Shown here in pieces: positions 13,071 to 55,573 of a DNA stretch of 64,000 nucleotides. The position numbers and the translations under genes are program-made. Below the pieces are notes generated by a model. The model saw only the letters and a program-made list of their open reading frames with translations, was not told the origin of the DNA and did not search any database. This stretch comes from Kiritimatiellia bacterium (lineage in GTDB: Bacteria; Verrucomicrobiota; Kiritimatiellia; CAIQIC01; Lenti-01), in NCBI GenBank assembly GCA_028681135.1, contig JAQUJC010000004.1, positions 8,107-72,106 on the forward strand, read 5' to 3'. Each line of letters opens with the position of its first letter. Position 1 is the first letter of the stretch.

Positions 13071-13087
13071 CTCTGGAAGTGGACAAA

Positions 13088-13120
13088 AAAACGCCGCGGA
13101 TTTCTCCGCGGCGAGTTTTC
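13088..13120 (-). terminator. Rho-independent terminator closing the ~19-kb minus-strand operon.
   Basis: The minus-strand RNA would read cgccgcggagaaauccgcggcg followed by UUUUUUU. This is a 9-bp GC stem with a 4-nt loop and a run of seven T residues. It lies 14 nt after the lipoprotein stop. Confidence 0.75.
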
Positions 13121-13133
13121 CGGCAGATGGATG

Positions 13134-39662: not shown

Positions 39663-40892
39663 TCATTTCACCAACGGCTCCACTTCGCGCCACAGTTCTT
39701 CGGCTGCGAGGCGGATGCCCGCATCGTTCCAATGGGTGTCATCGCGCCAGTAGAGCCGCTGTCCCCGGGCTGTCGCCGCCTCAAAGACGGGCAGGAGATT
39801 CACAGTCGGGATGCCATTCGAGGTTAGCCCTGCGGTAATGGCGGCCAATAATTCTGGACCGCGTGCCAGGGCCTGCTGCTGTTCGAGCGGTAGCGCGCGC
39901 GCATGAATTTGTTCTTTTTCGGGAACCAGCAGAACTACCAAGGTTATGCCACGATCGCGCAGCCCCTCCGCCACGGAGGCCACGGTCTGCACGATGGGCG
40001 GGGCATCTGCTTCGGGCGTCAGCAGCGGCAACACGCGCAGGTTTTCCCCGTAAAACAGCATGGGCCCAAATTGGGGGTCGTCCGCCCCCAGTACGTCGCT
40101 CGGCCATTCCCGAAAGACCTGCCATTCGATGTGTCGCCAGGCCTGCCGTGCGGCATAGGCTGTCAACGAGGTATTGGGCCAGGCGTTGCGCAGCACGGCG
40201 GGAGCCAGATGATCCCATAAAATGCGCGAGGCTGCTGCGCTGGGCTGTGCATCCACGGCTAACGTTCGGTCAAACCAAGCCTGGACCGCCTGTCGCTGGA
40301 AAAGCGGCGCGCCCAATTCCCGCGCGGTCAGGTTCCACACCACGACTCGCGGCGGCGGATCAAAGCGGTCGGCCGCCAAAAATCGGCGCAGTTCCAAAAA
40401 GGGCCCCGAGCCACGACGGGCATGATTGTAAACGCCGATGTGTCCGATATCGGCCACGACCTGGGCCACCGTTTGTGTGCCCAGTGACACCATGAAGCTA
40501 TCGCCGACCATCAGGACCGAACACATCCCGGTCGCCATCGCGGACGAATTGACATAGCCCCAGGCATCAAACGGCAACACAATTTCCGGATGGAACTCCG
40601 CATAGCGGGCCGCGAGCGACGATCCCGGCAGCATCTGGGTCAACCCGGCTCCCGTCTGGGCCGGGATGAGTTGACTGCGTGCCGCCGCCGCCCCTGTGCC
40701 CACCGATGTCGCCGGGCGACCTGTCGGCAGCCACTGGTCTTGCCATCGAAATAGCCTCAGCCGCGCCACCCAATCACCGGCTACCATCAACAGCCAGGCC
40801 GTCAGCAAAATGCTCACCCACCCCCTCAGCCATCGGGGCCGCGCGGACTCAAATTCCGTCCGTAGGTCAGGTTGGGGGATGTGGTCGTTCAT
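39663..40892 (-). CDS. AlgX/AlgJ-like SGNH-hydrolase-fold protein, the periplasmic partner of an MBOAT O-acyltransferase. It is predicted to be a polysaccharide O-acetylation component.
   Basis: There is an N-terminal TM anchor. The C-terminal RDDTHWN motif is characteristic of AlgJ/AlgX. The gene begins 7 nt after the MBOAT stop. Confidence 0.6.
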   Translation of the reverse strand: MNDHIPQPDLRTEFESARPRWLRGWVSILLTAWLLMVAGDWVARLRLFRWQDQWLPTGRPATSVGTGAAAARSQLIPAQTGAGLTQMLPGSSLAARYAEFHPEIVLPFDAWGYVNSSAMATGMCSVLMVGDSFMVSLGTQTVAQVVADIGHIGVYNHARRGSGPFLELRRFLAADRFDPPPRVVVWNLTARELGAPLFQRQAVQAWFDRTLAVDAQPSAAASRILWDHLAPAVLRNAWPNTSLTAYAARQAWRHIEWQVFREWPSDVLGADDPQFGPMLFYGENLRVLPLLTPEADAPPIVQTVASVAEGLRDRGITLVVLLVPEKEQIHARALPLEQQQALARGPELLAAITAGLTSNGIPTVNLLPVFEAATARGQRLYWRDDTHWNDAGIRLAAEELWREVEPLVK

Positions 40893-40898
40893 ATTGGC

Positions 40899-42299
40899 TC
40901 AAAATTGAAAATACAGGAATGGTGAACTTGTATTGACCAGGAAAGTCGCCACACACAGCACAAACAGCGCCAACAACACCGTCGCCAGCCAGATGCTCGG
41001 CCGCCAGCGGATTTCCCACGTGTTGCGGGCGGCAAAGACCATCCCCAGACAGATTATCAGCGCTGTCCAATTCAAGGCCCCGGTCCCGGACAGCGGATAG
41101 GTCGCCCCCCAGCCATTGACCCCGACGAGCCCTTTGGCCATGCGGACGACTCCGGCCAGCGTCGGCGAGCGAAACAACACCCAGCCCACCATCACCAGCA
41201 CAAAGGTGAACACCCTCTGGACGGGCGCGGGAAATCGCCAGACAAAACCACGCTTGCCGCCCATCCGTTCGAGGGCCAGCAACGTCCCATGATAGGCGCC
41301 CCAGAGCACAAAAGTCCAACTGGCCCCATGCCACAACCCGCCCAGTAGCATCGTCAGGAACAGGTTGATATAGGTGCGCACCGGCCCCTTGCGATTGCCG
41401 CCCAGCGGCACGTACAGGTAGTCCCGCAACCACGATGAGAGCGAGATGTGCCAGCGCCGCCAGAAGTCTGTGATCGAAAGCGATTTGTAGGGCGAATTAA
41501 AATTTTGAGGAAACTGGAAACCCAGCAGCAGCCCGAGGCCCACCGCCATATCCGAATAACCGCTGAAGTCGAAATATATTTGCACGGTATAAGCCAGCAG
41601 GCTGCTCCAGGCCCCGGCCCATCCCAGCACGGCCTGGGAAAACCCCCAATCGGCCATGGGTGCGACGGCATCGGCCAGCAGCACCTTTTTGGACAAGCCC
41701 AACACGAAGAGCGTGATTCCCGCGCCCGCCTTGGCCCAGGTGTGACTGCGCTGCCGCAGTTGATTATCTAGCTCGCGGTAGCGCACGATTGGCCCCGCCA
41801 CCAATTGCGGAAACAGCGATACATAACAGGCAAAATCAATAAAACTCCGCGCTGGGCGCGCCTGTCCCCGGTAGATGTCGATCGTGTAGCTCATCGCCTG
41901 GAAGGTGTAGAACGAAATGCCCACCGGCAGCACCAGGTGCAGCAAGGGGACCCCGCCGGATGCCGCACCCAGCCACTGCGTTAATGCGTTCACGGTCTCC
42001 GCGCCCAAATCATAGTATTTGAAGAACCCCAGAATGGCCAAATCCGCACTCACCGCCACGGTCAGCCAGCGCTTTTTGGAGGCCGGCGCGCGCGCCGCCG
42101 CGATCCGTCCGCCGGCGATATAGTCGATGGTGGTCGTCAGCAGCAGCAATCCGCAAAAGCGATAATCCCACCAGCCATAGAACACGTAACTGGCCAACGC
42201 CAACCAGCCGTGGCGCCAGCGCCGCGGCAACAGCAGGTAGTAGCCGGCCAAGACAGCCGGCAACAGCAAAAAGATGAATTCGTAGGAATTGAACAACAT
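40899..42299 (-). CDS. MBOAT-family membrane-bound O-acyltransferase (AlgI/DltB-like).
   Basis: The 466-aa product is multi-TM, begins MLFNSYEFIFLLLPAVLAGYY, and has the conserved His-containing MBOAT core (..WRRWHISLSSWLRDYLYVPLGG..). Confidence 0.8.
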   Translation of the reverse strand: MLFNSYEFIFLLLPAVLAGYYLLLPRRWRHGWLALASYVFYGWWDYRFCGLLLLTTTIDYIAGGRIAAARAPASKKRWLTVAVSADLAILGFFKYYDLGAETVNALTQWLGAASGGVPLLHLVLPVGISFYTFQAMSYTIDIYRGQARPARSFIDFACYVSLFPQLVAGPIVRYRELDNQLRQRSHTWAKAGAGITLFVLGLSKKVLLADAVAPMADWGFSQAVLGWAGAWSSLLAYTVQIYFDFSGYSDMAVGLGLLLGFQFPQNFNSPYKSLSITDFWRRWHISLSSWLRDYLYVPLGGNRKGPVRTYINLFLTMLLGGLWHGASWTFVLWGAYHGTLLALERMGGKRGFVWRFPAPVQRVFTFVLVMVGWVLFRSPTLAGVVRMAKGLVGVNGWGATYPLSGTGALNWTALIICLGMVFAARNTWEIRWRPSIWLATVLLALFVLCVATFLVNTSSPFLYFQF

Positions 42300-42303
42300 G
42301 GCG

Positions 42304-43650
42304 CTATCCGCCCGCCATCTGAATCATCTTGGCATCGCGTTCCGCCCGCAGAATTCCCATCAGTGCCGATACAGAACCCGCCAGAATCATCATCGGCGGA
42401 TGCCACGGCAAGGGGCTGAAAAATCCGCCCACCGCGATGGCCACAGCCTGAAGCTGAAACGTCCAGCCCAAATCCCGGACGGCCGGCCAATGCGCCGCAT
42501 TTTGCCGCACCCAATTGCCTCCAAAGAAAATCAACCCGACGAAACCCACATATAGCCCCATCCCGATCACTCCCATTTGCCGCCCTGCCATCAGGATTTC
42601 ACAGTGCACCTGTCCGCTGGCCATGGGGAAGCGATCCTCATATTGGGATGCATTGGGATTAACACCTACTCCAAACAAGGGGTAGGTCTTGATTAAGGCC
42701 CACGTGTCCCGATTCTTGGCCTGGCGCTCATCAGCGCTCTGTTCATCCTGGGACATTGGGCCCGTGCGTTCCGTATCTCCGCCGCCCAAAAAGGCGGCGA
42801 TCGATTGGGGAATCGTACGGAAGCGTTCCTTATTTTTTTCGCCCGTCAACGGAAACAGTAAAACAAGCGCAATGCCGACGCCCACCAAGGTTTTCCAGCG
42901 GTGCCGGCCATAGTGAGGCAGCAGAAAAATTCCCAAGACGATCAGCGTCACCAAGCCCGTCCGGCTGCCCGTTTCGAATATGATCCAGACCGCCGCCAGG
43001 GCGCAGGCGAGAAAGCCCCAGCGCACCCATGGGCGGGTCGCTCGCTGATAGGCATACAGATACAGCGGCAAAAACACACACATCATGTAGGCGAATCCAT
43101 TCGGATTTTCGATCATGGATACTGCCGCTCCCATTAAACGATCCCCCGAATAGGTCGCCCCCAGGGCTGACAACCTCAATCCAGCCTTCACCCACCACAG
43201 CGTTGCAATCAACATCGTTATCTGCACCGCCCAGACCCGCTCCACCGTTGTGGCCAATGCTGCAATCATGATCAATAGAAGGGCATTTTTAATGAGGATA
43301 TCCAGATAAGGATTCCAGGCCGGAGAAATCTGATAGATACCAACATGCTGCGAAAGCGTAGCAAACAGCATGAGCGCAATGGCCAATATCGTTCCCAGCC
43401 CCAGACGCAGCAGAGACCGTCGTCCCTCCAGGCAGGAAACAATATGTAACCCAACACCGATGATAAATGCCAAATTAGCAATCCGTAATGGCCACAAAAA
43501 CGTGAACCGGTTTTGCGGCTGCACAAACAGGATGCAGATATACCACAATATAAACCGAAAGGCCCAAAGGTTCATGCCGATGGCCTCCATTGGAGCCACT
43601 GACGATTGCGTTGGCAAGATGGCGCGGGAAAAACCATGACAATGAGGCAC
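42304..43650 (-). CDS. O-antigen ligase / Wzy-like polymerase family membrane protein.
   Basis: There are ~10-12 predicted TM helices with a large periplasmic loop, in a polysaccharide-locus context. The true start may be 43590 or 43575. Confidence 0.5.
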   Translation of the reverse strand: MPHCHGFSRAILPTQSSVAPMEAIGMNLWAFRFILWYICILFVQPQNRFTFLWPLRIANLAFIIGVGLHIVSCLEGRRSLLRLGLGTILAIALMLFATLSQHVGIYQISPAWNPYLDILIKNALLLIMIAALATTVERVWAVQITMLIATLWWVKAGLRLSALGATYSGDRLMGAAVSMIENPNGFAYMMCVFLPLYLYAYQRATRPWVRWGFLACALAAVWIIFETGSRTGLVTLIVLGIFLLPHYGRHRWKTLVGVGIALVLLFPLTGEKNKERFRTIPQSIAAFLGGGDTERTGPMSQDEQSADERQAKNRDTWALIKTYPLFGVGVNPNASQYEDRFPMASGQVHCEILMAGRQMGVIGMGLYVGFVGLIFFGGNWVRQNAAHWPAVRDLGWTFQLQAVAIAVGGFFSPLPWHPPMMILAGSVSALMGILRAERDAKMIQMAGG

Positions 43651-43842
43651 TATAGGGGCCGCCCCTCCTTACCGCAACGGATTTCAGCCCGATTCCCAGC
43701 CAACATGGGCCCCTCAGCCTTCACCTTTCAGCCCTCATCCCCCATCTTCCCTCCCCTTTGAACGGGTGGGCTCCTCTTGCGCCCTTTGCGCCCCTTGCAT
43801 TACACTGACAGCCGCGGCCCTCCCATCAGTCTCTTTTTCTCA

Positions 43843-44544
43843 CTATTGCCGCAGGTGCTGGCCGCCATCCACGAACAGAATCTGGCCGGTAATGGATTGG
43901 GATTTGCACAAAAACACGACAGCCTGCGCCACATCCTCGACCGTCGGCCGCCGCCCCAGCGGCAGTTCTCCGGCGGCTTCGCGCACACCCTCCGGCACCA
44001 GCACCGGCCCCGGCGCCACCCCATTTACCCGCACCCGCGGTGCCCACGCCCGCGCCAGCGACACCACCGACTCCGCTACCTCCCGTTTCGTGGCCGTATA
44101 CGTTTGGAACTCCCCGGTCGCGGGCCAGGCAATACGGCTATCCAGCATCTGCACCACACACCCGCCTGTCGGCTGATCGGCCAGCATCCGGGCCAGGTGC
44201 TGCGGTGCCGCCACATTCACCGCCTGCAGTTCTGCCAGGTCCATCTGCCCATCGCGCCCAAACACCGCCGCATTATTGACCAAGATATCCACCCGCCCCA
44301 TCCAATCGGCCGCCTCACGAAACACCCACTCGCAGCCCTGCGGTGTGGACAAGTCCCCACGCACGGAAAATACCCCCTGGCCCAGTGTGTGGTTCATCCC
44401 GATGGACTCTTTTTCGGAATGGAGATACTGCACCACGACACTGGCACCCTGTGCCGCCAGCTCGCGGCAAATGGCTGCTCCGATGCGCCGCGCCCCCCCC
44501 GTCACCAATGCCACCCGCCCCTGCAAATTACCTCTCGCGCTCAT
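43843..44544 (-). CDS. SDR-family NAD(P)-dependent oxidoreductase.
   Basis: The N-terminal TGGARRIGAAI (TGxxxGIG) cofactor motif and SDR length (233 aa) fit the family. Confidence 0.75.
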   Translation of the reverse strand: MSARGNLQGRVALVTGGARRIGAAICRELAAQGASVVVQYLHSEKESIGMNHTLGQGVFSVRGDLSTPQGCEWVFREAADWMGRVDILVNNAAVFGRDGQMDLAELQAVNVAAPQHLARMLADQPTGGCVVQMLDSRIAWPATGEFQTYTATKREVAESVVSLARAWAPRVRVNGVAPGPVLVPEGVREAAGELPLGRRPTVEDVAQAVVFLCKSQSITGQILFVDGGQHLRQ

Positions 44545-44560
44545 GACACCACCCGATGGA

Positions 44561-45895
44561 TCAGCCTTTGGTGCGCGTATCGATCACTCGCACCGCTTTG
44601 CCTTCTGACCGCGGTGTACGGCCGGGTTCCACCAGACGCACTTTGGCATGCACCGCCAGCGCCGTCTCCAGGGTGCGCTCAATGTTGTTCTTCATCGCCT
44701 GCTGCTTGGTCATTTCGTCAAAGAAGAGCGCCTCCGTAACCTCCACCAGCACCTCCAGCACGTCCAGGGCCCCCTCGCGGCTCACCACGATCTGGTAATG
44801 CGGTGCCACGCCATCAATCGACAGCAACGCTTTCTCGACCTGCTGCGGATACACATTCACGCCCCGGATGATCAACATGTCGTCGCTGCGGGCCGACACC
44901 TTGCTCATGCGCCGTCCCGTCCGCCCGCAGGGGCACTCATCTGCCAGGAATCGACACAAGTCGTGCGTTCGATAGCGCACCACGGGAATGGCCTCTTTAG
45001 TCAGCGTGGTCAGGACCATTTCGCCGCCCTCGCCATACGGGTCTGCCACGGGCACGCCGGTCGTTGGGTCAATCAATTCCGGCAGAAAATGATCTTCGGC
45101 AATATGCATGCCCTGTTGCTCGATACACTCGCATGACACCCCCGGGCCCATCACCTCGCTCAATCCATAGTTGTCGGTGGCAAACACGCCCAGGCTCTTT
45201 TCCAGTGCCCGGCGCATCTCATCGCTCCACGCCTCGCCCCCAAACAACCCCAGTCGCAGCCGAAGGTCGCTGGCGGACCCCGTTTTCTGGATCAACTCGG
45301 CCAAATACATGCCGTAGGACGGCGTGCAAATCAGCACTGTGGAGCCGTAATCCTTCATGATCTGGATTTGGCGCTCGCTTTTACCCGAGGAGATGGGCAA
45401 CACCGCCGCGCCTATTTTTTCAAGGCCATAGTGATGTCCGATGCCGCCAGTAAAGAAGCCATAACCGAAGGCAACCTGCACAATGTCACAATTTGTCAGA
45501 CCCGCGGCGGTATGCAGGCGCGCCATCAGCTCCGACCACGTGTCGAGATCCTGCGTAGTATAGCCCACCACGGTCGCTTGGCCGGTCGTCCCTGACGACG
45601 CATGAATGCGCACGACCTCCTCCATCGGCACCGCGAATGCTTGATAGGGAAAACACCCCCGCAGATCATCCTTGGTTGTGAAGGGCAGCTTCGCCACATC
45701 CGCCAGGGAGCGGATATCCGTGGGCGTGACCCCCGCCGCCTCCATTTTGGCCCGGTAGTAGCCCACTTTCTCCCATGCGGCCTGCACGATGCCCTGCAAT
45801 CGCTTCAGTTGCAGCGCTTCCAGCTCCCCTCGGGGCATGCACTCGCACGCCGGGTTCCATATGCGATTAGCGGGCTTCTTGGAGGTAGTCATCAT
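44561..45895 (-). CDS. Phenylacetate-CoA ligase-like adenylate-forming enzyme (PaaK/CapK/coenzyme F390 synthetase family).
   Basis: The sequence reads ...ASSGTTGQATVVGYTTQD...YGLSEVMGPGVS.... The family is recognised by its overall pattern, and CapK-like members are common in capsule loci. The start is at the MMTTSKKP ATG (45895). Confidence 0.65.
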   Translation of the reverse strand: MMTTSKKPANRIWNPACECMPRGELEALQLKRLQGIVQAAWEKVGYYRAKMEAAGVTPTDIRSLADVAKLPFTTKDDLRGCFPYQAFAVPMEEVVRIHASSGTTGQATVVGYTTQDLDTWSELMARLHTAAGLTNCDIVQVAFGYGFFTGGIGHHYGLEKIGAAVLPISSGKSERQIQIMKDYGSTVLICTPSYGMYLAELIQKTGSASDLRLRLGLFGGEAWSDEMRRALEKSLGVFATDNYGLSEVMGPGVSCECIEQQGMHIAEDHFLPELIDPTTGVPVADPYGEGGEMVLTTLTKEAIPVVRYRTHDLCRFLADECPCGRTGRRMSKVSARSDDMLIIRGVNVYPQQVEKALLSIDGVAPHYQIVVSREGALDVLEVLVEVTEALFFDEMTKQQAMKNNIERTLETALAVHAKVRLVEPGRTPRSEGKAVRVIDTRTKG

Positions 45896-46099
45896 CCGCT
45901 CACTGTAATCCCCCCCCGCACCCGGTTCAATCCCGAATCCCGGTGGATGCTGGTCGTTGGTCAATCCAAATCCGTTTATGCCACAGAGGGCCACCGAGAT
46001 TCACAGAGAGGAGCCAAATTCCCTTTCCCACCGCATGTCGTAATTTTCGTGAATTTCGTAGTTTGGCTTTTCCGATCCCTCTTCCCCTTATTCGGACCA

Positions 46100-46260
46100 T
46101 TCGTGTCATTTGTAGTAAAACTGCTTTCCCTCCGTGTCTCCGTGCCTCTGTGAGAACCCGGCTGTTTCCCTAAGTTCATGAGTTCAGATTCACCCGCCTC
46201 CCCTCTGACATTGGATGTTAAGTTCCAAAACTCATTCGCGTCTTGGCGTGAGACCGGCTG
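46100..46260. repeat. Dispersed intergenic element, family A, copy 2.
   Basis: It reads cattcgtgtcatttgtagt...ccctaagttcatgagttcagattcacc...cgcgtcttggcgtgagaccggctgg. It matches 12900..13070 and 50380..50545. Confidence 0.6.
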
Positions 46261-46453
46261 GTCCGAGCGCTCCCCTAAAGACTAAACATAACCCTCCCCC
46301 CCCCCATTGACACGCCGCATGGAACAGCCTATTCTTCCCACTGTCATTGCCAGTTCAGCCGCACCTGTGGCGCGACCGATGGGACTGGCCAAGGCCAATT
46401 AAAGGAATTTATCCGCGCAACATCCTGCTACCGCCGGACGACTCCGCCGCCCC

Positions 46454-47185
46454 GTGAAAATACCCTCTCTGCCTGCCCCGGATTCCAAATGGATTCCGTT
46501 GGTGCTTCCACCCCAGCCCACCGACACCTCGTGCGGACCCACCTGTCTCCACGGACTCTATCACTTCTATGGCCATGATCTACCCCTCGCCCAGATCATT
46601 AAAGAAATTGAATCGGTTCCCGGAGGCGGCACCTTCGGCGTACTGCTGGGCAACCATGCCCTCTCGCGTGGATTCGCCGTGCGCCTACTGACGTGGAACC
46701 TGCGGGTCTTCGACCCCACCTGGTTCCCCGGCACACCCGCTGACCTCGCCGCCAAACTTAAGGCCAGCTTGCCACTGCGCAAAACGCCCAAACTCCGCCA
46801 AGCCATTCGGGCCTATATCCGCTTCTGCGAATGGGGCGGCGAGATTTCCATGGAAGTCCTTAACGCGGCCCTACTCCGTCGGTATCTGCGCCAGAACCAC
46901 CCCATTCTCACCGGACTCAGCTCCACATTCCTCTATCGGGACTCGCGGTCCAACCCCGCCACCCATGCCGACGACGACCTCGGCGGCGAGGCCGAGGGCC
47001 ACTTCGTCCTGCTCACTGGCTATGATCGCCAAGCCCGCATTGTACACATTGCCGACCCGTATGCGGAAAATCCCATTACTAATCAGTCCCGCTACGCGGT
47101 GCCGCTGGACCGCCTGATCAACGCGGTTTTGCTGGGCATACTCACCTACGACGCCAACCTACTCATTATTATTCCAAAATCATGA
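46454..47185 (+). CDS. Papain-like cysteine peptidase of the C39-like type (243 aa), the first gene of a three-gene ligase operon.
   Basis: The PQPTDTSCGPTCLHGLY region fits the C39 Q-x5-D-x-CG-x-x-CL catalytic-Cys motif. The GHFVLLTGYD region fits the catalytic His motif. The stop overlaps the start of the ATP-grasp gene by 4 nt. Confidence 0.55.
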   Translation: MKIPSLPAPDSKWIPLVLPPQPTDTSCGPTCLHGLYHFYGHDLPLAQIIKEIESVPGGGTFGVLLGNHALSRGFAVRLLTWNLRVFDPTWFPGTPADLAAKLKASLPLRKTPKLRQAIRAYIRFCEWGGEISMEVLNAALLRRYLRQNHPILTGLSSTFLYRDSRSNPATHADDDLGGEAEGHFVLLTGYDRQARIVHIADPYAENPITNQSRYAVPLDRLINAVLLGILTYDANLLIIIPKS

Positions 47186-48645
47186 ACCATATTCTCCTGG
47201 TCACTGACAACCCAGACCGCTGGAGTTTCGACATTCCGTCCGTAACCGTCGTCACCGCCCGGCAATATCTTACCGACCCACAAATCCAGCGCCTGCGTAA
47301 CTGCCGCGTTTTCAATCTATGCCGTCACTACCGCTACCAGTCCGCCGGCTATTATGTCTCGCTCCTGGCCGAAGCCCGGCGCCACCGCCCCCTCCCCAAG
47401 ATCACCACCCTCCAAGACCTCAAAACCTCGTCTATTTTCCGCGACATCCCCCCCGATCTCGACGAGATCGTTCAGAAATCCCTCGCCCCCCTACAGTCCG
47501 ACACCTTCACCCTCTCAATCTACTTCGCTCAGAATACCGCCAAGCGCTACGAACGCCTCGCCCGCCAACTCTTCAATTTATACCCCGCCCCCCTGCTGCG
47601 CGCCGAATTTAAGCGCGACACCGAAATGCGCTGGAGCCTAACCAACATCAGCCCCATCTCCGGTGCCGCTGTCCCCGCAGAACATCAGGAGATGGTTGAA
47701 CACTTTGCTCGCGACTACTTTTCGCGGAGCAACCGTCGTATCCGCCGCCGGGTCCCCGCGCGCTTCTCCATGGCCATCCTCGCCGATCCCGGCGATCCCG
47801 ATCTGCCCTCCGACCCCAAGGCACTCCAGCGCTTCATCCGCGCCGCCGAGAATCAATCCATCGAAGCCGAACTCATCACCCGCGATGACTACGGCACCCT
47901 TGCTGAATATGACGCGCTTTTCATCCGCAGCACCACCATCGTCAATAATTATACCTTCCGCTTCTCCCGCCGCGCTCAGTCCGAAGGCATCGTGGTGATT
48001 GATGACCCCGACTCCATCATCCGCTGCGCCAACAAGGTTTTCCTTGCCGAAGCGTTTGAACGCAACCACATCCCCGCCCCTAAGACGGTCATCGTCCACA
48101 AGGACAACAAAAATCTCGTCCTGATGCAGCTTGGGCTACCCTGCATCCTCAAGCAACCCGACTCCTCCTTCTCTAAAGGCGTTGTCAAGGTCAAGACACA
48201 GGAAGAATACACGACCGCCATCGATGCTCTCCTCGAAAAATCCGACCTCATCATCGCCCAGGAATATGTTCCCACCGAGTTCGACTGGCGCATTGGTGTG
48301 ATCGACCGTACCCCCCTATACGCCTGTCGCTACTACATGGCCCACGGCCACTGGCAAATCTATGACCACACCAAGAAGGGCAATGCCCGCTTCGGCCGTT
48401 GCGACACCCTGGCCCTTGCGGATGTCCCCGACGAGATCATACAGACGGCGCTCAAGGCCGCCAATACTATCGGCGATGGCCTCTACGGCGTCGACGTCAA
48501 GATGATCAGCGAACGGCCTGTCGTCATCGAGGTCAACGACAACCCCAGCATTGAATCCGGCATCGAAGACCATGTCCTTAAGGATGGCCTCTACGATACC
48601 ATCATGGCCTCCTTCCGTCGCCGCCTCGAAACCATCGGGAAATAG
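47182..48645 (+). CDS. RimK-type ATP-grasp ligase (alpha-L-glutamate ligase-like) with a ~200-aa N-terminal domain of unknown function.
   Basis: The C-terminal ATP-grasp region is LAEAFERNHIPAPKT...ILKQPDSSFSKGVVKV...IAQEYVP...DWRIGVID...GVDVKMISERPVVIEVNDNPSIESG, which is RimK-like. Confidence 0.75.
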   Translation: MNHILLVTDNPDRWSFDIPSVTVVTARQYLTDPQIQRLRNCRVFNLCRHYRYQSAGYYVSLLAEARRHRPLPKITTLQDLKTSSIFRDIPPDLDEIVQKSLAPLQSDTFTLSIYFAQNTAKRYERLARQLFNLYPAPLLRAEFKRDTEMRWSLTNISPISGAAVPAEHQEMVEHFARDYFSRSNRRIRRRVPARFSMAILADPGDPDLPSDPKALQRFIRAAENQSIEAELITRDDYGTLAEYDALFIRSTTIVNNYTFRFSRRAQSEGIVVIDDPDSIIRCANKVFLAEAFERNHIPAPKTVIVHKDNKNLVLMQLGLPCILKQPDSSFSKGVVKVKTQEEYTTAIDALLEKSDLIIAQEYVPTEFDWRIGVIDRTPLYACRYYMAHGHWQIYDHTKKGNARFGRCDTLALADVPDEIIQTALKAANTIGDGLYGVDVKMISERPVVIEVNDNPSIESGIEDHVLKDGLYDTIMASFRRRLETIGK

Positions 48646-48649
48646 CCCT

Positions 48650-49894
48650 GTGCCCCGCGCCCCCTTCCACCTCTTCGAGCGCTTCGGTGTCGAACTCGAA
48701 TACATGATTGTCGACAGCGATACCCTCGATGTCCGCCCCATTACCGACCGCCTCATCCATTCCGTCGGCTCCGCCCGCAAAAACGAGGTCCGTCACGGCG
48801 CTGTGCGCTGGTCCAACGAACTGGTGCTGCATGTCATCGAGATGAAGACCGACGGACCGGCCCCCGCCCTCACGGGATTGGCCGAGCTCTTCCAGGCAGA
48901 CATTCGCGCTCTAAACGAGATGCTCCGCGACCACAACGCCCGCCTGCTGCCCGCTGCCATGCACCCCTGGATGAACCCCCATCGTGAAACGTGCCTGTGG
49001 CCCCACGGCGACAAGACCATCTACGAGACGTTTGATCGCATCTTCGACTGCCGCGGCCACGGCTGGTCCAACCTTCAGTCCACCCACCTCAATCTCCCCT
49101 TCTGCGGCGACGACGAATTTAACCGCCTGCACACTGCCATTCGCCTGCTGCTCCCCCTCCTGCCCGCACTCGCCGCCAGCTCACCGTTTGCCGAAGGCCG
49201 ACGCACCCCATTCCTCGATATGCGCCTCGAAGCCTATCGCCACAATTGCGACCGCATCCCCGTGCTCACCGGCCACGTGGTCCCCGAATGGATCGCCAGC
49301 GAACAACGCTACCACGCCGGCATCTTCGAGCGCATCGCCCGCGCTCTCGCCCCCCTCGACCCCAACGGCATCCTCGAACCCGAATGGGCCAACGCCCGTG
49401 GTGCCATCGCCCGCTTTTCACGCGCTACCATCGAAATCCGTGTTCTTGATATCCAGGAATGCCCCGCTGCCGACCTCGCTATTCTCCAGTTCATCGTGGC
49501 CATCATCCAACACCTCGTCGATGAATCTATCGCCCCGCGCACGCTCCAGAAAAATCAGCGCGTAGCCGCTCTCGCCACCCTCTTCCTCGATGCAGTGAAA
49601 AATGCTGAGCAGTCGGTCATTCGCGATCGCCGCTATCTCGCCGCTCTTGGATTGGACACGTTACGCCGCGCCACCGCCCGCGACGTCCTGCACGCTCTAC
49701 TTGACCGCGTCGCCCCCCCCGATGCCCCCTGGCGCCCCACCATCGATTTCATCCTGCGCCAGGGCACCCTCGCCCGCCGCATCATCCAACACGCTGGCCA
49801 CCGCCCCTCCCGCCAACAATTGCGCGAGACCTATCAGCAGCTAGCCGACTGCCTCCACAACGGCCAGCTATTCCTCGGCCCCCCCGCCCCCTGA
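48650..49894 (+). CDS. GCS2-family carboxylate-amine ligase (YbdK-like glutamate-cysteine ligase family 2).
   Basis: The GCS2 motif FGVELEYMIVD is near the N-terminus. A GTG start at 48650 lies 4 nt after the ATP-grasp stop. The ORF-track ATG at 48551 would overlap the upstream gene by 95 nt. Confidence 0.7.
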   Translation: MPRAPFHLFERFGVELEYMIVDSDTLDVRPITDRLIHSVGSARKNEVRHGAVRWSNELVLHVIEMKTDGPAPALTGLAELFQADIRALNEMLRDHNARLLPAAMHPWMNPHRETCLWPHGDKTIYETFDRIFDCRGHGWSNLQSTHLNLPFCGDDEFNRLHTAIRLLLPLLPALAASSPFAEGRRTPFLDMRLEAYRHNCDRIPVLTGHVVPEWIASEQRYHAGIFERIARALAPLDPNGILEPEWANARGAIARFSRATIEIRVLDIQECPAADLAILQFIVAIIQHLVDESIAPRTLQKNQRVAALATLFLDAVKNAEQSVIRDRRYLAALGLDTLRRATARDVLHALLDRVAPPDAPWRPTIDFILRQGTLARRIIQHAGHRPSRQQLRETYQQLADCLHNGQLFLGPPAP

Positions 49895-49944
49895 CCAGAA
49901 CCGGATACGTCCGGATTCCCCCAGCCAAAATCGTTCACCACCCG

Positions 49945-50030
49945 CCCCGCTCAAGACTATAGTTATTGCAGTGTGTGTACTATAGATATTGCACTACATA
50001 TAGTATAGTTGTTGCAACAACTATAGTCTT
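49945..50030. promoter_or_regulatory. AT-rich nested inverted repeat (aagactatagttattgca ... tgcaacaactatagtctt) with five ACTATAG-like cores.
   Basis: The outer arms are complementary at 18 of 20 positions. The internal TACTATAGATAT / ATATAGTATAG arms are partly complementary. It is a roughly 30% GC island in a ~63% GC genome. Confidence 0.5.
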
Positions 50031-50085
50031 AGTTTTGAAAGACGCATCTGTGATTCAGTACAAGATTATTTGCCAGGCTCAAAGC

Positions 50086-50160
50086 TCGGCTCACCGAGGA
50101 CGGTTCGCCCTGCCGGGGGCGGGAATGCGCGTCATGGGTAGGGCGAATCGTCCCGATGAG
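50086..50160. repeat. Family-C long imperfect hairpin element (cggctcacc..ggttcgccct.cc ... gggtagggcgaa..gtccc.atgagccg).
   Basis: The arms are complementary with compensatory-like changes. Related copies sit at 39181-39235 and tandem, and at 63484-63575. Confidence 0.55.
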
Positions 50161-50207
50161 CCGCCCCTGAGGCCATGTTTTCATGATTTTCGCGATTTTC
50201 GCAGTTC

Positions 50208-50310
50208 GACTGCCTATCCACCGGGCTTGTCCCGGTGTGCTTAAGGCTGCGTGCAACCATTCAAGCGACGAAGCCAACTCAACCATCCCCGAGACAAGCC
50301 CGGGGGGATT
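50208..50310. repeat. Family-B structured element, copy 2.
   Basis: See 12655..12760. Confidence 0.6.
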
Positions 50311-50379
50311 CCTTTCCTGAGTTCCAGATTCATTTTCCTTCTATCTCCAGTCCCTGGCTGCTTGCGCGCCGTAGCCTTG

Positions 50380-50545
50380 GCGAAGGTGGGTCAATTGAAA
50401 CCTTCTCCCGTTCCCCCTTCTCCCCCTTTGCAGCTTGGCGTCTTTGCGTGAGATGCCTTCCCTCTTCTCTGAACATCTGTGTTCTCTGTGGTAAAATTCA
50501 GCTTCCCGGCTATTCTTTCCTGAGTTCATGAGTTCAGATTCATTT
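50380..50545. repeat. Dispersed intergenic element, family A, copy 3. A short variant sits at 50313..50337.
   Basis: It reads gcagcttggcgtctttgcgtgagatgcc...ttcctgagttcatgagttcagattcatttg. Confidence 0.6.
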
Positions 50546-50704
50546 GAAATTGGAAATTGATATTGGATATTGTACCTGTCTCTGTGACTTCCGACCTCCG
50601 ACCTCGGCCCCCCCCCCAGTTCTTTTTCGCGTTCTTCGCGCCTTTCGTAGTTTCTCCGTCGAGTTCTGGCTTGTCCCGATTTTCGACTGTTTCCACCGGG
50701 CGGT

Positions 50705-51718
50705 TTGCCGCATACTGCTTCTCCAGTGAATGTTCCGCCCACCATTTTGACCAACATGGCATTTCGGCAAAGCCGCCTCTGGCGCGAGGCCACCACCACC
50801 ATCTGCCGCACGCACGAATCGCCCGACGCCCTATGCCCGCTGCGCCAGGCATTGCGCCTGTTGCGCCGCCGGGCAGATTACGATGTCATCGTCACCATGG
50901 GCGCCCGCGCCTCCCTAGCCTATGGCCTGCTCTGCGCGCTACTACGCAAGCCCTCCAAGCAGATCATGACGGAAGTCTTTCTCGACCCGCCGCGCCCCGC
51001 CTGCCCCCTGTGGCGGTTGAAAACCGCCTGCTTCCGCTGGAGCGCCCGCCGCGCGTACGGCATCCTGACCAACAGCTCCGGCGAAGTCGATCTCATTGCC
51101 CGCCGCTTTGATCTCCCAGAAGACAAGCTGCGCTTTGTGCCCATGTACACGACCGTTGAGAATCCGGGGTTGCGAGAAGAAAACGACGGCTCGGTCGTCT
51201 CCATCGGCCGCACCCTGCGGGACTTGTCCACGCTCCTTGCTGCGGCCCCCGCAATTGCCGCCCCCATCACGATTGTGGCGGCCCGGCACGATCACATCCC
51301 AACCCCACTACCCGCCAACGTTGAGATACTCCGTGAGATTCCGCTGGAGCAAACCTATGGCCTGCTGTCCCGCGCGGCGGTGGCCGTCGTCCCCCTGCTG
51401 CCGGCTGAACGCTCGACCGGGCAGGTGTTTTTTTTCGAGGCCATGGCCATGGGCAAGCCCGTGGTCGCCACCCGCTCCATTGGCACCAGCGACTATCTGC
51501 GCGATAACGAAAATGCCCTGCTCGTCGACCCCACCCATCCCCAGGCTCTGGCGGCCGCCGTCAACCGGCTCCTTGCCGACCCCGCGCTGGCCGCCCGCCT
51601 CGCCGCCCGCGCCCTAGAGGAGTGCCAAAGCGACTGGACCCCCAACGCCCACGCCCGCCACAAACTCCAGGCCATCGCGGAACTGTGGGAACGGTCTACG
51701 TTGATCCCGATTTCTTGA
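50705..51718 (+). CDS. Glycosyltransferase, GT4-like (glycosyl transferase group 1 C-terminal domain).
   Basis: The C-terminal region VFFFEAMAMGKPVVATRSIGTSDYLRDNENALLVDP is typical of GT-B group 1 enzymes. The N-terminal boundary is uncertain. The 3' end overlaps a convergent GT2 gene by 23 nt. Confidence 0.6.
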   Translation: MPHTASPVNVPPTILTNMAFRQSRLWREATTTICRTHESPDALCPLRQALRLLRRRADYDVIVTMGARASLAYGLLCALLRKPSKQIMTEVFLDPPRPACPLWRLKTACFRWSARRAYGILTNSSGEVDLIARRFDLPEDKLRFVPMYTTVENPGLREENDGSVVSIGRTLRDLSTLLAAAPAIAAPITIVAARHDHIPTPLPANVEILREIPLEQTYGLLSRAAVAVVPLLPAERSTGQVFFFEAMAMGKPVVATRSIGTSDYLRDNENALLVDPTHPQALAAAVNRLLADPALAARLAARALEECQSDWTPNAHARHKLQAIAELWERSTLIPIS

Positions 51719-52433
51719 AAAACCGATAGTAAATCAGGTTGCCCAGGAATTCGAAAATGGCGGAAATCGGCACAAAGGTTCCCCGTCTTTCATTTCGGTA
51801 GAACACGGTGGACACCTCCCCCACCGACAGATCATGCCGCAACGCTTCAATCATGATTTCGGCATCTGTAAACCAATCGTTGGAAACGAGATGTATCTTG
51901 TCGTAGGCTTCCCGGGTCATGACCTTGGGCTTGGAATTGATGTCCCGGAACACGTGAGCCGCCGGATAGAGCAGACGAAACAGAAAATTATAGAACCCGG
52001 AAATGGTCCGGCGGTAGACGCCATCCTGCCGTTGCGCCCGAAAGGTCTTGACCAGGTCGTACCGGCCCACCTGCAAGACGCGGTAGACCTTGATCACATC
52101 ACTCATGGGCATTTGGCCGTCCCCATCGATCACGGCAATGTGCCGTCCTTTCGCCGCCTCCAGCCCCAGGCGCATGTCCCAGCCCATCATGCCTTGTTTT
52201 TCACGGGCCACTACCGTAAACCGAGGCTTGCTCTCGGCCAGTTCCTTCAATACCTCGGGCGTGCGATCCTTGGTGTCCCCGGGCAGATAGTTGCCCACCA
52301 AAACCAGTTCATAGTCGATACGGGCCTCTTCCATCTCCCGCTCCACCTGGGCCACTAGGTCGCGTACCACATCGGCCGAATGATAGCACAGAATCACCAC
52401 GGACAGTTCAGGAATGGACTGATTTTTGCTCAT
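51696..52433 (-). CDS. Family 2 glycosyltransferase of the polyprenol-phosphate glycosyltransferase type (DPM1/ArnC-like).
   Basis: The product begins LSVVILCYHSADVVRDLV and contains IAVIDGDGQ (a DxD-like motif). At 245 aa it is soluble-GT2 sized. It lies next to an ArnT-like GT-C gene, which matches the usual pairing. Confidence 0.7.
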   Translation of the reverse strand: MSKNQSIPELSVVILCYHSADVVRDLVAQVEREMEEARIDYELVLVGNYLPGDTKDRTPEVLKELAESKPRFTVVAREKQGMMGWDMRLGLEAAKGRHIAVIDGDGQMPMSDVIKVYRVLQVGRYDLVKTFRAQRQDGVYRRTISGFYNFLFRLLYPAAHVFRDINSKPKVMTREAYDKIHLVSNDWFTDAEIMIEALRHDLSVGEVSTVFYRNERRGTFVPISAIFEFLGNLIYYRFFKKSGST

Positions 52434-52441
52434 ATCTTCTC

Positions 52442-53173
52442 CTAGCGGCGCAATGGGCGGGTCACGCGCTCAAACCACCAATCCGGCATCCAGGCACCGA
52501 AACGCGCAACTGCTCCAACCGTCCAGGGATAATAGTATCGGAATCGATGCGAGGGAAGCACCGTCTTGGCCAGGAAGCGCGCGACCTCCTGCGGGGTTGC
52601 CACACCCCGCGGGGCCGCCCCGCCCCCGGCAAAACGGGGATTGATGGACGTATGAACCGGTCCGAGACATACCTCTTTGAAGGCGACCGGGTCATGGCTG
52701 TAGCGCAAACGAAGTGCTCGCATCGCCATGGACAGCGCCGCCTTGCTGGCGGCATACGCTGGGCAATCCGGATCGGGCCACTGCGCAAACAAACTCGACA
52801 TGGCAATGAACTGTACCGGCCTCCGCGGCGCCCCATCCATCCAGTGGGAGACCCAATAGAGCGCCCCCTCCACATTGGTGCGCCAAACCGCTTGCATGGG
52901 GTGCCATTCCAAAGACGCATGCGATTCTTCATATTCAATGGCGGCATTCAGAAATACGGCGTCCGGGACAAAGCCAGCCGCATCCATCTGCTCGGCGGCG
53001 TCATCCCGGGATTCACCCTCGGCCACGTCGCACACCACATGGCGGAATTGACCTTCTTGTGCCCCGACGGGAACGGTCCGGGAAAGCCCCCACACCGTAT
53101 GGCCGCGCCGAACCAATTCCGTCGCCAAAGCACCACCAATGCCCCGGGATACGCCTGTCACCATACATTTCAT
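52442..53173 (-). CDS. SDR-family oxidoreductase.
   Basis: The product begins MVTGVSRGIGGALATEL and is 243 aa long. It overlaps the upstream gene by 4 nt. Confidence 0.7.
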   Translation of the reverse strand: MKCMVTGVSRGIGGALATELVRRGHTVWGLSRTVPVGAQEGQFRHVVCDVAEGESRDDAAEQMDAAGFVPDAVFLNAAIEYEESHASLEWHPMQAVWRTNVEGALYWVSHWMDGAPRRPVQFIAMSSLFAQWPDPDCPAYAASKAALSMAMRALRLRYSHDPVAFKEVCLGPVHTSINPRFAGGGAAPRGVATPQEVARFLAKTVLPSHRFRYYYPWTVGAVARFGAWMPDWWFERVTRPLRR

Positions 53174-55227
53174 TCTTCGTGCATCCGGATATCCGCCCGA
53201 ACATAGCCCATCGTGAGCCGTAGCGGTTGCGCCAACGGCTTAGAAGAGCGTAAAATAAAGCGAAGACGATCAATCTCCAGCGGCCCTTCAACCTTTACAT
53301 ACTGTGGTTCAGTAATCTCCCGGAGGGGGACCGAAAACATATCCGTCGCTCCACTCCGCACCTCCAGAACCACATCCCCGACCTCCGGAGATATATCCAA
53401 CAGATAAAAAGAGAGGTCAGCAGCAACCACCGGGTCTGCCGCAACAATCCAGTCCGCCTTCGTCTCGCTGCGCTTGGCGTCCATCTCCAACACAACTTCG
53501 AACGGCTGATACGCCCCGGGCCGGACCTGGACCCCTTGTGACAGCTCCCACCCGGGCTGAACATTGCGGTAGAACAGATGCGCGGGCAGATAATGAACAA
53601 CTGCCGTCAAGAAAAGGAGGATTACAGCAACGGCCCCCGACACAAGCATGGCACGAACGAATATTGCTTTCCATGAAAGCGGTTGATCCCCGGCATTCAG
53701 CCGCGAATCCGGACGGGTGACAAACGCCATGGCTCCCGCCAGCGCCAGGAAGGGTTGGCAGAAAATGGAGTAGCGCGGGGAGGTTTCACCGAAAAACACA
53801 TACGCCCCCCACGTCACCAGCGGGGCCAGAACCACCGGCAGCCATCGCCCCTGGCGGCCAGGATTACGGGCCAGAACCAGACAGCCCCAAAACGCCATGC
53901 CCAGGAAAAGCGGAGAGGCGGCCCACCGCATGCCCCGCACAACGGGCAGCCACCGTGACCGTGTAGCAGCCAAACTCTCTTCTAAGTTGGAGGCATAGCC
54001 CACGAGAAACAGCTTGGCGGTCTTCACCAGCGGGAAGCGGGCACAAACCACTTCGGGATTGTGACGGATCTGGGAGCCAACCAGCCGGAACATAGCGGTG
54101 GATTTATCCGGCCAGGGCGTGACCCGGTCCAATTGTTCATATCTTCCGCAATATTCTCCGGCGCTTTCCGGACACCATCCCCGCGCCATAAACGCCGGCA
54201 GCACTGAGTTCAATCGGTGGTCATCATGCCGAGCCAACCAGCTGTCGTAGCTCCGGGCCAACGGAACGGAACCAACCAGAGGAATCAGGATGGCAAACAG
54301 TCCCACCTTTGCCCAGCGCCGCCAACCGGCACCGGCTAACCCGGTCCACCCCCACACGAATACCCAGACCGCCAAGGCAATCCAATGCGTCCCGCGCTGC
54401 CACATCATCAGCAGCAGGCACGCCACCGCGCCCAGCGACAGGCCGAAGCTCCGTCCGAGAGCCGGGGACGAGTAGACCAATTCCCACACGCACCACAAGC
54501 CGGCCAGGAAATAAAAAGAAGAAAAAAGGTGGTGGGTATAATCGGTGACCACCATCGTTTGAAACGGCAGCACCACCAGCAGAAAGACCGCCCATTTGCG
54601 TTTTCCGGCCGGAAGCAACCGTCGGGACCATCCATAGGTGACCCCCAGAATAGCGGAGGAAAGCCCCACATTGAACAGACGAACCCACAACAGATCATGA
54701 GAACCGGCCAGCAGGCGAACCGCGTAATGAAACGGCAGCACGCGACCCGCCCAGACCGGATAGTCGTAAATCCGGCTCAGGCCCCGCATGGCGTCAGGAG
54801 CCAGGCGGGTGTCCGCCATGGTGCGGACAAACATGTGAAACAACTCCTGGTCGGCCAGAATCGGCAACTGTGCCGCCCAGGCAACGACTCCCAGCTTGAT
54901 GATGGCGCTGAAAGCAATGAGTACCCCCACCACGTTGTGCTCAGGGAATCCTCTAGATCGGTGAACCAGAGTTGCCAACCCACCGACACCCAGTGCATAT
55001 CCCACGGCTCCGAAGACCCAAACCGCCCCCTCCCCCGCAAGCCACTTGACAAACGGCACGCCCAGGGCGGTCACAAAAGAGATGAACAAAACAATCGCCA
55101 GAGCAACCGGCGGAATGGAGGCAACAAAGGCAACGAAACGGGAAATCACTTCCCAAACACCGCCGTGGGATCCGATCCATGCCGCGTTATGGAGGTTTTG
55201 ATCACCATTCGCGCTCATCCCCGGCAT
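53170..55227 (-). CDS. GT-C fold membrane glycosyltransferase (ArnT/PMT-like, GT83/GT39-like) with a C-terminal periplasmic domain.
   Basis: The product has ~12 TM helices in its N-terminal two thirds and a soluble C-terminal domain of ~200 aa. It sits in an operon with a DPM1-like GT2. The start is placed at the MPGMSANG ATG. The track ORF extends to 55407. Confidence 0.5.
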   Translation of the reverse strand: MPGMSANGDQNLHNAAWIGSHGGVWEVISRFVAFVASIPPVALAIVLFISFVTALGVPFVKWLAGEGAVWVFGAVGYALGVGGLATLVHRSRGFPEHNVVGVLIAFSAIIKLGVVAWAAQLPILADQELFHMFVRTMADTRLAPDAMRGLSRIYDYPVWAGRVLPFHYAVRLLAGSHDLLWVRLFNVGLSSAILGVTYGWSRRLLPAGKRKWAVFLLVVLPFQTMVVTDYTHHLFSSFYFLAGLWCVWELVYSSPALGRSFGLSLGAVACLLLMMWQRGTHWIALAVWVFVWGWTGLAGAGWRRWAKVGLFAILIPLVGSVPLARSYDSWLARHDDHRLNSVLPAFMARGWCPESAGEYCGRYEQLDRVTPWPDKSTAMFRLVGSQIRHNPEVVCARFPLVKTAKLFLVGYASNLEESLAATRSRWLPVVRGMRWAASPLFLGMAFWGCLVLARNPGRQGRWLPVVLAPLVTWGAYVFFGETSPRYSIFCQPFLALAGAMAFVTRPDSRLNAGDQPLSWKAIFVRAMLVSGAVAVILLFLTAVVHYLPAHLFYRNVQPGWELSQGVQVRPGAYQPFEVVLEMDAKRSETKADWIVAADPVVAADLSFYLLDISPEVGDVVLEVRSGATDMFSVPLREITEPQYVKVEGPLEIDRLRFILRSSKPLAQPLRLTMGYVRADIRMHEE

Positions 55228-55573
55228 CGTTACGGAAGCCAGAGTGAAGGGCAAGCCCAAACAGCCGAAACGTAACGGCCCGAACAGTAATCTGAGTCGC
55301 TTGCTACAACAGTCACCCCTACTGGATCGAACAGGTGATCCCCGCACACGACGACTGATCTCGCGCCGGTAAAGGGGCAAATGAGGGCCGCCCGTGAATT
55401 GTAGCAATCGGGCTATGGCTCATGCCTGAATTCTTCATCAATTGGATTCGCAATTCCCGCAATTCCGCAATTCCACAGTTGCCCCACCCCACGTCATGCG
55501 CTAAGGTGTGAGGTTTTCTGATCATTCGACCATAGACGGGCGCGTTTGCCAGCGCTTACAGGAGACCATTGTC

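Follow-up and report, generated by a model that had tools for sequence, protein, structure and literature searches.

A widespread cassette of a C39-like peptidase, an RLAN-RimK ligase and a GCS2 ligase: a candidate module for building and trimming a glutamate-containing amide

The subject of this article is a compact group of three genes in a 64,000-nucleotide (nt) stretch of DNA from a Kiritimatiellia bacterium (contig JAQUJC010000004.1), referred to throughout as the window. They encode a stand-alone C39-like cysteine peptidase, a RimK-type ATP-grasp ligase preceded by an RLAN domain, and a GCS2/YbdK-type carboxylate-amine ligase. Of the 80 species-level loci compared, which represent more than 10 phyla, 65 have the same genes in the same order, a recurrence in independent loci that, judged by gene order, places the arrangement far beyond chance. 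The window copy is an ordinary member of this widespread and recognizable cassette, for which no experimental study was found, and there is nothing unusual in it. We tentatively read the cassette as a self-contained cytoplasmic module for building and trimming an amide linkage that involves glutamate, the acceptor being a short peptide made from free amino acids; in our judgment this combined reading falls somewhat short of an even chance.

Knowing the product would give a function to hundreds of protein clusters that contain RLAN (807 at 50% identity). It would also reveal whether bacteria employ paired ligases and hydrolases to produce a new glutamyl peptide or to add and remove protein tails. 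The value of the window is as a pointer to a tractable enzyme system, the mechanism of which is not settled by sequence.

The three genes and their conservation

The genes of the cassette are as follows.

46454..47185, + strand: C39-like (papain-fold) cysteine peptidase/amidase, stand-alone, 243 amino acids (aa), GTG start
47182..48645, + strand: RLAN plus RimK-type ATP-grasp ligase, 487 aa, ATG start
48650..49894, + strand: GCS2/YbdK-type carboxylate-amine ligase, 414 aa, GTG start

An earlier note on this DNA described three co-directional, tightly packed genes with a 4-nt overlap and then a 4-nt gap, and this is what the junctions contain: peptidase and RLAN-RimK genes share an ATGA (47182-47185), and RLAN-RimK and GCS2 genes are joined by a TAG stop, 4 nt and a GTG (48643-48652). 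The mechanical list of open reading frames (ORFs) opens the GCS2 frame at a TTG (48551); the start is placed at GTG 48650 because the spacing of 4-5 nt and the N termini of relatives agree. The identities proposed in that note, namely C39-like, RimK-type ATP-grasp and GCS2, are supported by Pfam and NCBIfam profiles. On profile scores, each protein is a relative only, and not a member, of the corresponding functional family (bacteriocin C39, RimK or YbdK); none is filed as a member because the curated cut-offs of these families are missed.

When one genome per species was scanned by pattern, the RLAN-RimK protein turned up in at least 595 species. The cassette itself was surveyed by tblastn with the three proteins of the window, and the best 80 species-level loci were compared. 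The co-conservation on which the earlier proposal depended is borne out by them. Besides the loci with all three genes, five have RimK and GCS2 without the peptidase and three have the peptidase and RimK without GCS2. The ligase stands without either partner in at least two of the 80 (three more are cut by contig ends), and the remainder are also cut by contig ends. GCS2 lies 3' of the RimK gene in 70 of the loci. Carriers include Verrucomicrobiota, Planctomycetota, Bacteroidota, Ignavibacteriales, Acidobacteriota, Myxococcota, Fibrobacterota and Nitrospiraceae among others, together with several classes of Pseudomonadota (Thiobacillus, Nitrosomonas and Gallionella), Desulfobulbaceae and other Thermodesulfobacteriota. 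Among the culturable carriers are Blastopirellula marina DSM 3645, Thiobacillus thioparus DSM 505, Nitrosomonas communis Nm44 and Pontibacter ruber. Across phyla the cassette proteins are 40-60% identical.

The only further conserved family is FGase (N-formylglutamate amidohydrolase, PF05013), encoded directly after GCS2 in 38 of the 58 triad loci with enough sequence and absent from 19-20. It was never seen without GCS2 in the survey loci, and this tie between the two genes suggests pairs of ligase and hydrolase. FGase is also present in the closest relatives of the window copy (survey loci L081, L085, L086 and L088, and, shifted by ~2 kb, L084); a tblastn search with four FGase homologues found none in the whole 64 kb of the window. 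Gene order marks the cassette without FGase as a real and frequent variant, for the close relative L092 likewise runs from GCS2 to a glycosyltransferase gene.

All-against-all clustering of the ORFs around the 80 genome-derived loci and the window revealed no other neighbor family in more than five of them, and no transporter; neither a proteasome component nor an AAA+ partner is among the conserved flanking families. The earlier note had regarded proximity to the gene for ribosomal protein S6 as a sign of housekeeping S6 modification, and no such gene (rpsF) lies near any of the 107 loci searched with an Escherichia coli S6 query. PADLOC models for anti-phage defense match none of the three proteins.

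Individual loci depart from the common plan. An AstE/AspA-family gene (N-acyl-Asp/Glu hydrolase-like) replaces the C39-like peptidase gene in L007 (2283-3248, - strand). A lineage-specific membrane protein, the N-terminal sequence of which looks MFS-like by eye, follows GCS2 in the Phycisphaerae loci L016, L019 and L021. The FGase of L010 (10696-11958) carries a weak C-terminal HD_4 extension.

The C39-like peptidase

The first protein of the cassette scores 39.6 bits against Pfam Peptidase_C39_2 (PF13529), above the cut-off of 24, and 20.5 bits against the classical Peptidase_C39 (PF03412), just below the cut-off of 22. Its Cys motif is QPTDTSCGPTCL, i.e. Q-x5-C-G-x2-C-L, and its His motif is GHFVLL. 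Both hallmarks had been recognized earlier; only the spacing, written as Q-x5-D-x-C, was slightly wrong. The putative catalytic residues are encoded at the following positions of the + strand.

46514-46516: Gln21
46532-46534: Cys27
47000-47002: His183
47054-47056: Asp201

These four residues are, among others, invariant in an alignment of 31 homologues (49-79% identity), and the Gln and Cys align with those of ComA. A structure model based on this alignment reached a predicted local distance difference test score (pLDDT) of 89.5, compared with only 38 for single-sequence AlphaFold. The closest folds to it are C39 peptidase domains and peptide-leader proteases, with which Foldseek concurs. The invariant residues, the confident model and the structural matches together uphold the papain/C39 fold with an intact Cys/His pair that had been predicted. 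Next among the structural neighbors are a Bacillus C39-like protein, the pseudomurein endoisopeptidase PeiR (16.8) and the primitive phytochelatin synthase Alr0975 (16.6). The last of these acts on glutathione, and the neighbors thus include enzymes that cut small peptides or isopeptides. In the model, the fold does not discriminate between a peptide leader, an isopeptide and a small γ-glutamyl peptide as the substrate.

The C39 domains of ABC exporters of the PCAT/ComA type resemble the protein of the window in fold and catalytic set. They are, however, fused to an exporter and act with a double-glycine precursor, whereas the window's peptidase is stand-alone, has neither partner nearby and, in its model, carries an additional segment, helical for the most part (roughly residues 95-145), that separates the catalytic Cys from the His. 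It has no hydrophobic N terminus and is apparently cytoplasmic. No transporter and no small-ORF family that could supply an ABC exporter or a double-glycine substrate is conserved around the cassette loci. With the exporter and substrate missing and PF03412 under its cut-off, the description "bacteriocin-type C39" in the earlier note was too strong; by its sequence matches, the protein is a relative and not a member of the bacteriocin-processing C39 family.

The two ligases

The RLAN-RimK protein had been credited with an uncharacterized N-terminal domain of ~200 aa. The domain is there, but it has a name: residues 26-173 (about 47257-47700) match RLAN (PF14401) with E = 1e-47, and the RLAN plus RimK architecture is already catalogued in Pfam under that entry. 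A Pfam scan of RLAN at E ≤ 10 matched no other domain, and a profile search of PDB sequences for remote homology returned only eS12 (E = 1.1). The ATP-grasp module is complete and occupies residues 215-458 (about 47824-48555). Its match to RimK (PF08443) is clear at 40.6 bits (cut-off 21, E = 2.7e-10), and RimK chains in the PDB (7qyr, 5zct and 4iwx) match residues 240-468 only, with E = 5e-11. The protein falls under every NCBIfam cut-off, the best scores being 79.9 versus 143.4 for rimK_fam (TIGR00768) and 45.7 versus 331 for NF007764. Models of the RimK/MptN/LysX group match the ATP-grasp part with E = 1.9e-22, compared with 1.7e-8 for glutathione synthase, and the MptN and CofF models are among its NCBIfam matches. 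Identity of the RLAN-RimK protein to homologues in other phyla is 51-62%.

A search among representatives with window positions 47182-47826 found RLAN ligases fused to a RimI-like GNAT, in the order GNAT-RLAN-ATP-grasp in P0302, P0349, P0381 and P0279 and RLAN-ATP-grasp-GNAT in P0376. The GNAT of P0349 exceeds the RimI cut-off (90.5 versus 86.4 bits); most of the fused GNATs fall below it. Such fusions could hint at targets of the ribosomal S18/S6 type or at N-acetyl-dipeptide chemistry. The possibility that the GNAT-RLAN-ATP-grasp proteins are Ngg, the synthetase for the osmolyte N-acetylglutaminylglutamine amide (NAGGN), was discarded, as they match no Ngg model.

RLAN-RimK also occurs without peptidase, GCS2 or FGase, and the ligase can therefore work without its usual partners. 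Such solo genes are found in Pseudomonas aeruginosa (L089, 5001-6461, NZ_CP133752.1) and Azospirillum brasilense (L090), and L002, L020, L025, L030 and L041 are further loci listed as solo. The P. aeruginosa gene adjoins pagP, an SDR gene and an aminotransferase gene, and a glutamate/aspartate ABC transporter is encoded near it. Its counterpart in strain PAO1 is probably PA1345, for which no paper that looked functional from title and abstract was found.

The third protein matches GCS2 (PF04107) over profile positions 1-279 of 291, that is, at full length, with 111.2 bits and E = 8e-32. It also matches the structure of E. coli YbdK (1r8g, E = 9e-7). Its score against the YbdK family model TIGR02050 is 68.3 bits, below the cut-off of 176.4, and all gshA models score it far under their cut-offs.

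Promoter and leader of the operon

Three features lie immediately upstream of the peptidase gene.

46307..46335, + strand: sigma-70-type promoter-like site, TTGACA (46307-46312), 17-nt spacer and TATTCT (46330-46335), 10 of 12 consensus positions
46319..46402, + strand: 27-aa ORF, judged no gene, 51 nt before the peptidase GTG
46347..46390, + strand: conserved 44-nt leader/operator block TTGCCAGTTCAGCCGCACCTGTGGCGCGACCGATGGGACTGGCC, 42 of 44 positions identical in L084 and L085

The promoter hexamers and their 17-nt spacing are kept in eight related leaders, among them L084, L085, L092, L093, L095, L086 and L087, and the sequence of the spacer varies. The 27-aa ORF, which had been put forward as a possible precursor or substrate, does exist on the same strand, but the proposed role did not survive. 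Its ATG (46319-46321) falls between the two promoter hexamers, upstream of where transcription probably starts, and is missing in L084 and L085, which keep the DNA. Beyond the conserved block, indels break the frame, and the stop is not kept in relatives. The closely related L081 and L088, with no more than 86 and 35 nt in front of the peptidase gene, also count against the ORF. When every ORF of 12-90 aa near the cassette was clustered over all loci (more than 80), no small ORF or precursor gene conserved across lineages emerged. The clusters that did form comprise near relatives only and involve several frames and both strands; the conservation is therefore that of nucleotides and not of a peptide. 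Sequence comparison thus identifies the region as operon promoter and leader and not as a gene.

The leader block occurs once in the window and is also found in L084 (5610-5680), L085 (2574-2640), L092, L093/94/96 and L095. For comparison, the window and L084 agree at 57% of third codon positions in the adjacent gene (43% differ). A second class of leader (L086 and L087) shares the nucleotide pattern CGAC..A..GG[AG]C.GG and not the encoded amino acids. Within the block is a small imperfect palindrome, CCGC[AT]CC-YGT-GG[CA]GCG. A riboswitch or other known RNA was considered and rejected: nothing in Rfam matches at E ≤ 10, and the folding energy is unremarkable (z = +0.9). RNAalifold gave a weak consensus structure for five leaders, the pairs of which are broken in the second class. 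Together with the promoter, the block appears to form a leader/operator region restricted to close relatives; it may control the cassette as an operator or through a short RNA signal.

Relation to characterized systems

In the literature searched we found no experiments on RLAN or on this set of genes, in agreement with the earlier assertion that the triad is uncharacterized. The closest characterized system in logic is RimABK of Pseudomonas, where a RimK-type glutamate ligase has a dedicated peptidase: RimK and the protease RimB are encoded in one operon, the target is RpsF, and RimB trims the product of RimK and modulates RimK (PMC11957791, PMC10092738). The protease of that system has another fold, its RimK lacks RLAN and neither GCS2 nor FGase is present. 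The RLAN-RimK protein of the window lies below the RimK equivalog cut-offs.

Glutathione synthesis (GCS2-type GshA and GshB) taken together with Alr0975 likewise brings a ligase, an ATP-grasp enzyme and a papain-fold amidase to bear on one γ-glutamyl peptide, and glutathionylspermidine synthetase/amidase also resembles the cassette in logic alone. The glutathione systems employ a GshB-like ATP-grasp enzyme, unlike the RimK-like one of the window, where there is no sign of cysteine or polyamine substrates. The NAGGN osmolyte pathway, which comprises Ngg (GNAT plus ATP-grasp), AsnO and an M42 peptidase (PMC8070244), offers a precedent for non-ribosomal synthesis of a dipeptide by an ATP-grasp enzyme beside a peptidase, and GNAT fusions are also found in the RLAN family. 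That pathway depends on a GNAT and AsnO; the RLAN-RimK protein of the window has no GNAT, and an AsnO partner is absent.

Nearest in composition are the RLAN-RimK amidoligase neighborhoods of PF14401, which have the same domain architecture and, in the present survey, GCS2 and papain-like peptidase partners. Their delineation is purely bioinformatic, and the window copy lacks the FGase found in approximately two-thirds of cassettes. RLAN-RimK was reportedly introduced, computationally, in the amidoligase survey of Iyer, Abhiman, Burroughs and Aravind in 2009. The one functional observation found is indirect: in Francisella tularensis, FTT0178, annotated as "rimK" and 490 aa in length, was deleted without loss of virulence (PMC2675058); judged by length only, it is a likely homologue.

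Proposed function and alternatives

The reading that we favor begins with transcription of the cassette as one unit from the promoter at 46307-46335. The GCS2/YbdK-type ligase would use ATP to activate a carboxylate, most likely the side chain of glutamate, and then join it to an amine. RLAN-RimK would place one or more α-linked residues, most likely glutamate, onto a C-terminal carboxylate, and the C39-like hydrolase would cut or edit the same product, either to fix its length or to recycle it. In two-thirds of related cassettes GCS2 has an FGase-family amidohydrolase as its partner, which would have a like editing role. The sequences themselves show that the two ligases, which belong to different superfamilies, and the catalytically intact hydrolase are tightly packed and inherited together across phyla. 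From the enzyme families and their precedents we infer which substrates are used, in what order the steps occur and the logic of writers and erasers, in which the hydrolases would cleave the bonds formed by the ligases, or neighboring ones, for length control, proofreading or recycling. The preferred acceptor would be a short peptide, the product being a non-ribosomal glutamyl oligopeptide or dipeptide-type metabolite.

A glutamate-containing product is expected because all four families have glutamate-centered precedents. RimK, MptN and CofF add α-linked glutamate, GCS2 enzymes activate the γ-carboxylate of glutamate, and FGase cleaves N-acyl-glutamate. To our knowledge, every characterized GCS2 and FGase enzyme works on small molecules. 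Several RimK-family enzymes (MptN, CofF, the N-acetylaspartylglutamate synthetases and Ngg) make small glutamyl compounds. No substrate gene is conserved nearby; the neighborhood therefore does not encode the substrate, which is what one would expect of free amino acids. By analogy, the GNAT-RLAN-ATP-grasp fusions resemble the combination of acetyltransferase and ATP-grasp used in N-acetyl-dipeptide synthesis, and Alr0975 and PeiR, as neighbors of the modeled peptidase, would count for a small-peptide acceptor. Taken by itself, and with the thiol-peptide case discussed below included, a small peptide made from free amino acids has in our estimation about an even chance of being the acceptor; a conserved protein encoded elsewhere seems rather unlikely.

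A number of considerations weigh against a small-peptide product. Its substrate and product are derived throughout from sequence comparison and analogy, and the activities of the nearest characterized families are not transferable because all three proteins fall under the respective NCBIfam cut-offs. RimK itself modifies a protein, S6, and the GNAT of the fusions is RimI-like, over the cut-off in P0349; both may point to ribosomal or other protein substrates. The cross-phylum identity of RLAN-RimK would suit a metabolite no better than a macromolecule conserved universally. Structurally, the peptidase is matched best by peptide-leader proteases, and no exporter or further tailoring gene is conserved around the survey loci.

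These points bear on a different possibility, that the cassette reversibly modifies the tail of a housekeeping protein whose gene lies elsewhere, such as ribosomal S6 or its partner S18, the two being adjacent in the 30S subunit. RLAN would dock the ligase on the target, RimK would add C-terminal glutamates and GCS2 a differently linked residue, with the C39-like peptidase, and FGase where present, as erasers, in a counterpart of RimABK or of tubulin TTL/TTLL versus vasohibin/CCP. The similarity of the second protein to the RimK family, its very high conservation across phyla and the occasional fusion of RLAN-ATP-grasp to a RimI-like GNAT are all in keeping with such a role. The absence of a substrate gene from the cassette has a parallel in E. 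coli, where rimK is unlinked to rpsF, and Pseudomonas provides an established case of RimK paired with a protease that trims (PMC11957791). On the other side, rpsF is near none of the loci searched, the second protein is under the RimK equivalog cut-offs, most of the fused GNATs are under that of RimI, and protein substrates are not known for GCS2 or FGase. The Francisella "rimK" FTT0178, a likely homologue as judged by length only, is moreover deletable without attenuation (PMC2675058). We consider protein-tail modification doubtful on this evidence. Two writers, one an α-ligase of the RimK type targeted by RLAN and the other a side-chain ligase of the GCS2 type, and one or two erasers, a papain-fold peptidase and a deglutamylase of the FGase type, might constitute a reversible protein-tail "code" on a conserved housekeeping protein, possibly at the ribosomal S6/S18 site, or else a Pup-like conjugation outside Actinobacteria; the wider proposition is again one that we would regard as possible but not probable. 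If true, a protein-tail code would give prokaryotes an analogue of the glutamylation/tyrosination cycle of tubulin.

The remaining explanations are less plausible. In a thiol-peptide pathway like those of glutathione and phytochelatin, GCS2 would make γ-Glu-Cys, the ATP-grasp enzyme would resemble glutathione synthetase, and the papain-fold protein would be an Alr0975-like γ-glutamylcysteinyl transpeptidase or hydrolase. GCS2 is, after all, γ-glutamylcysteine-ligase family 2, and glutathione synthase models do match the ATP-grasp part weakly. That part is far better matched by the RimK/MptN/LysX models, however, the peptidase is nearer to C39 domains than to Alr0975, and the neighborhoods contain no pointers to thiol or metal stress. 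We regard this pathway as improbable, and in any case as a special case of the favored small-peptide product, not a separate mechanism. Two ligases and two hydrolases would also be appropriate to Pup-like tagging, in which the former make or activate a glutamate at the C terminus of a small protein or peptide and attach it to lysines of target proteins and the latter remove it. The pupylation enzymes PafA and Dop share the carboxylate-amine ligase superfamily with GCS2, and Iyer et al. are said to have predicted such systems from gene neighborhoods in 2009. The GCS2 protein matches YbdK-type models, though, no proteasome or AAA+ partner accompanies it, and no lineage has a conserved small tag gene beside the cassette. 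Maturation of a bacteriocin or other ribosomally made, post-translationally modified peptide (RiPP) would have the 27-aa ORF as precursor, cut by the C39-like peptidase and given a tail by the ligases. The position of that ORF on the same strand, 51 nt upstream, is suitable, and C39 domains classically cut leader peptides. Against this stand its ATG in the conserved promoter spacer, a start and stop that are not kept where the DNA is, the short upstream regions of L081 and L088, and the lack of a double-glycine motif, an ABC exporter or a conserved small ORF in more than 80 loci; a precursor gene adjoining the enzymes, as in RiPP systems of the graspetide type, is found neither in the window nor across lineages. 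Tagging and RiPP maturation are both unlikely because no small gene is conserved, the former highly so and the latter to the point of being scarcely credible.

Surroundings of the cassette

The GC content of the cassette (0.56-0.65) is the same as that of its surroundings, and this comparison gives no signal of horizontal transfer. The flanks (39663-45994 and 50705-55407) form a cell-envelope polysaccharide region, with genes for an AlgX-like SGNH protein, an MBOAT protein, a Wzy_C O-antigen ligase-like protein, two SDRs, a GT4 and a GT2. A PaaK-like adenylating enzyme (acyl-adenylate ligase) and a 745-aa multi-pass membrane protein without a Pfam match are also encoded there. Flanks of this kind are not common to most relatives, and the downstream GT4 gene is shared by the close relative L092 only. 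Between the operon and that gene lies one further feature.

49895..50704, no strand: long spacer 3' of the operon, 810 nt, without an FGase gene (tblastn, four FGase homologues)

In the syntenic locus L092, GCS2 is followed by the same glycosyltransferase gene, the blastn match to which begins ~150 nt past the end of the GCS2 match; the spacer is several hundred nt longer in the window. The extra DNA, especially at 49953-50040, contains AT-rich nested palindromes (49953-50030) with three units resembling TATAG(T/A)T(A/G)TTGCA, and also one copy of a dispersed repeat (50516-50542). It may be a small inserted element. No tRNA and no credible Rfam match was found in the spacer.

A dispersed intergenic repeat with the core GTTCATGAGTTCAGATTCA is present in three copies in the window (13047-13065, 46166-46192 and 50516-50542). 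Similarity in the flanks of the core covers roughly 150 nt, and the extended copies span about 12868-13183, 45995-46310 and 50345-50660. The last two of these, in direct orientation, bracket the three-gene cassette.

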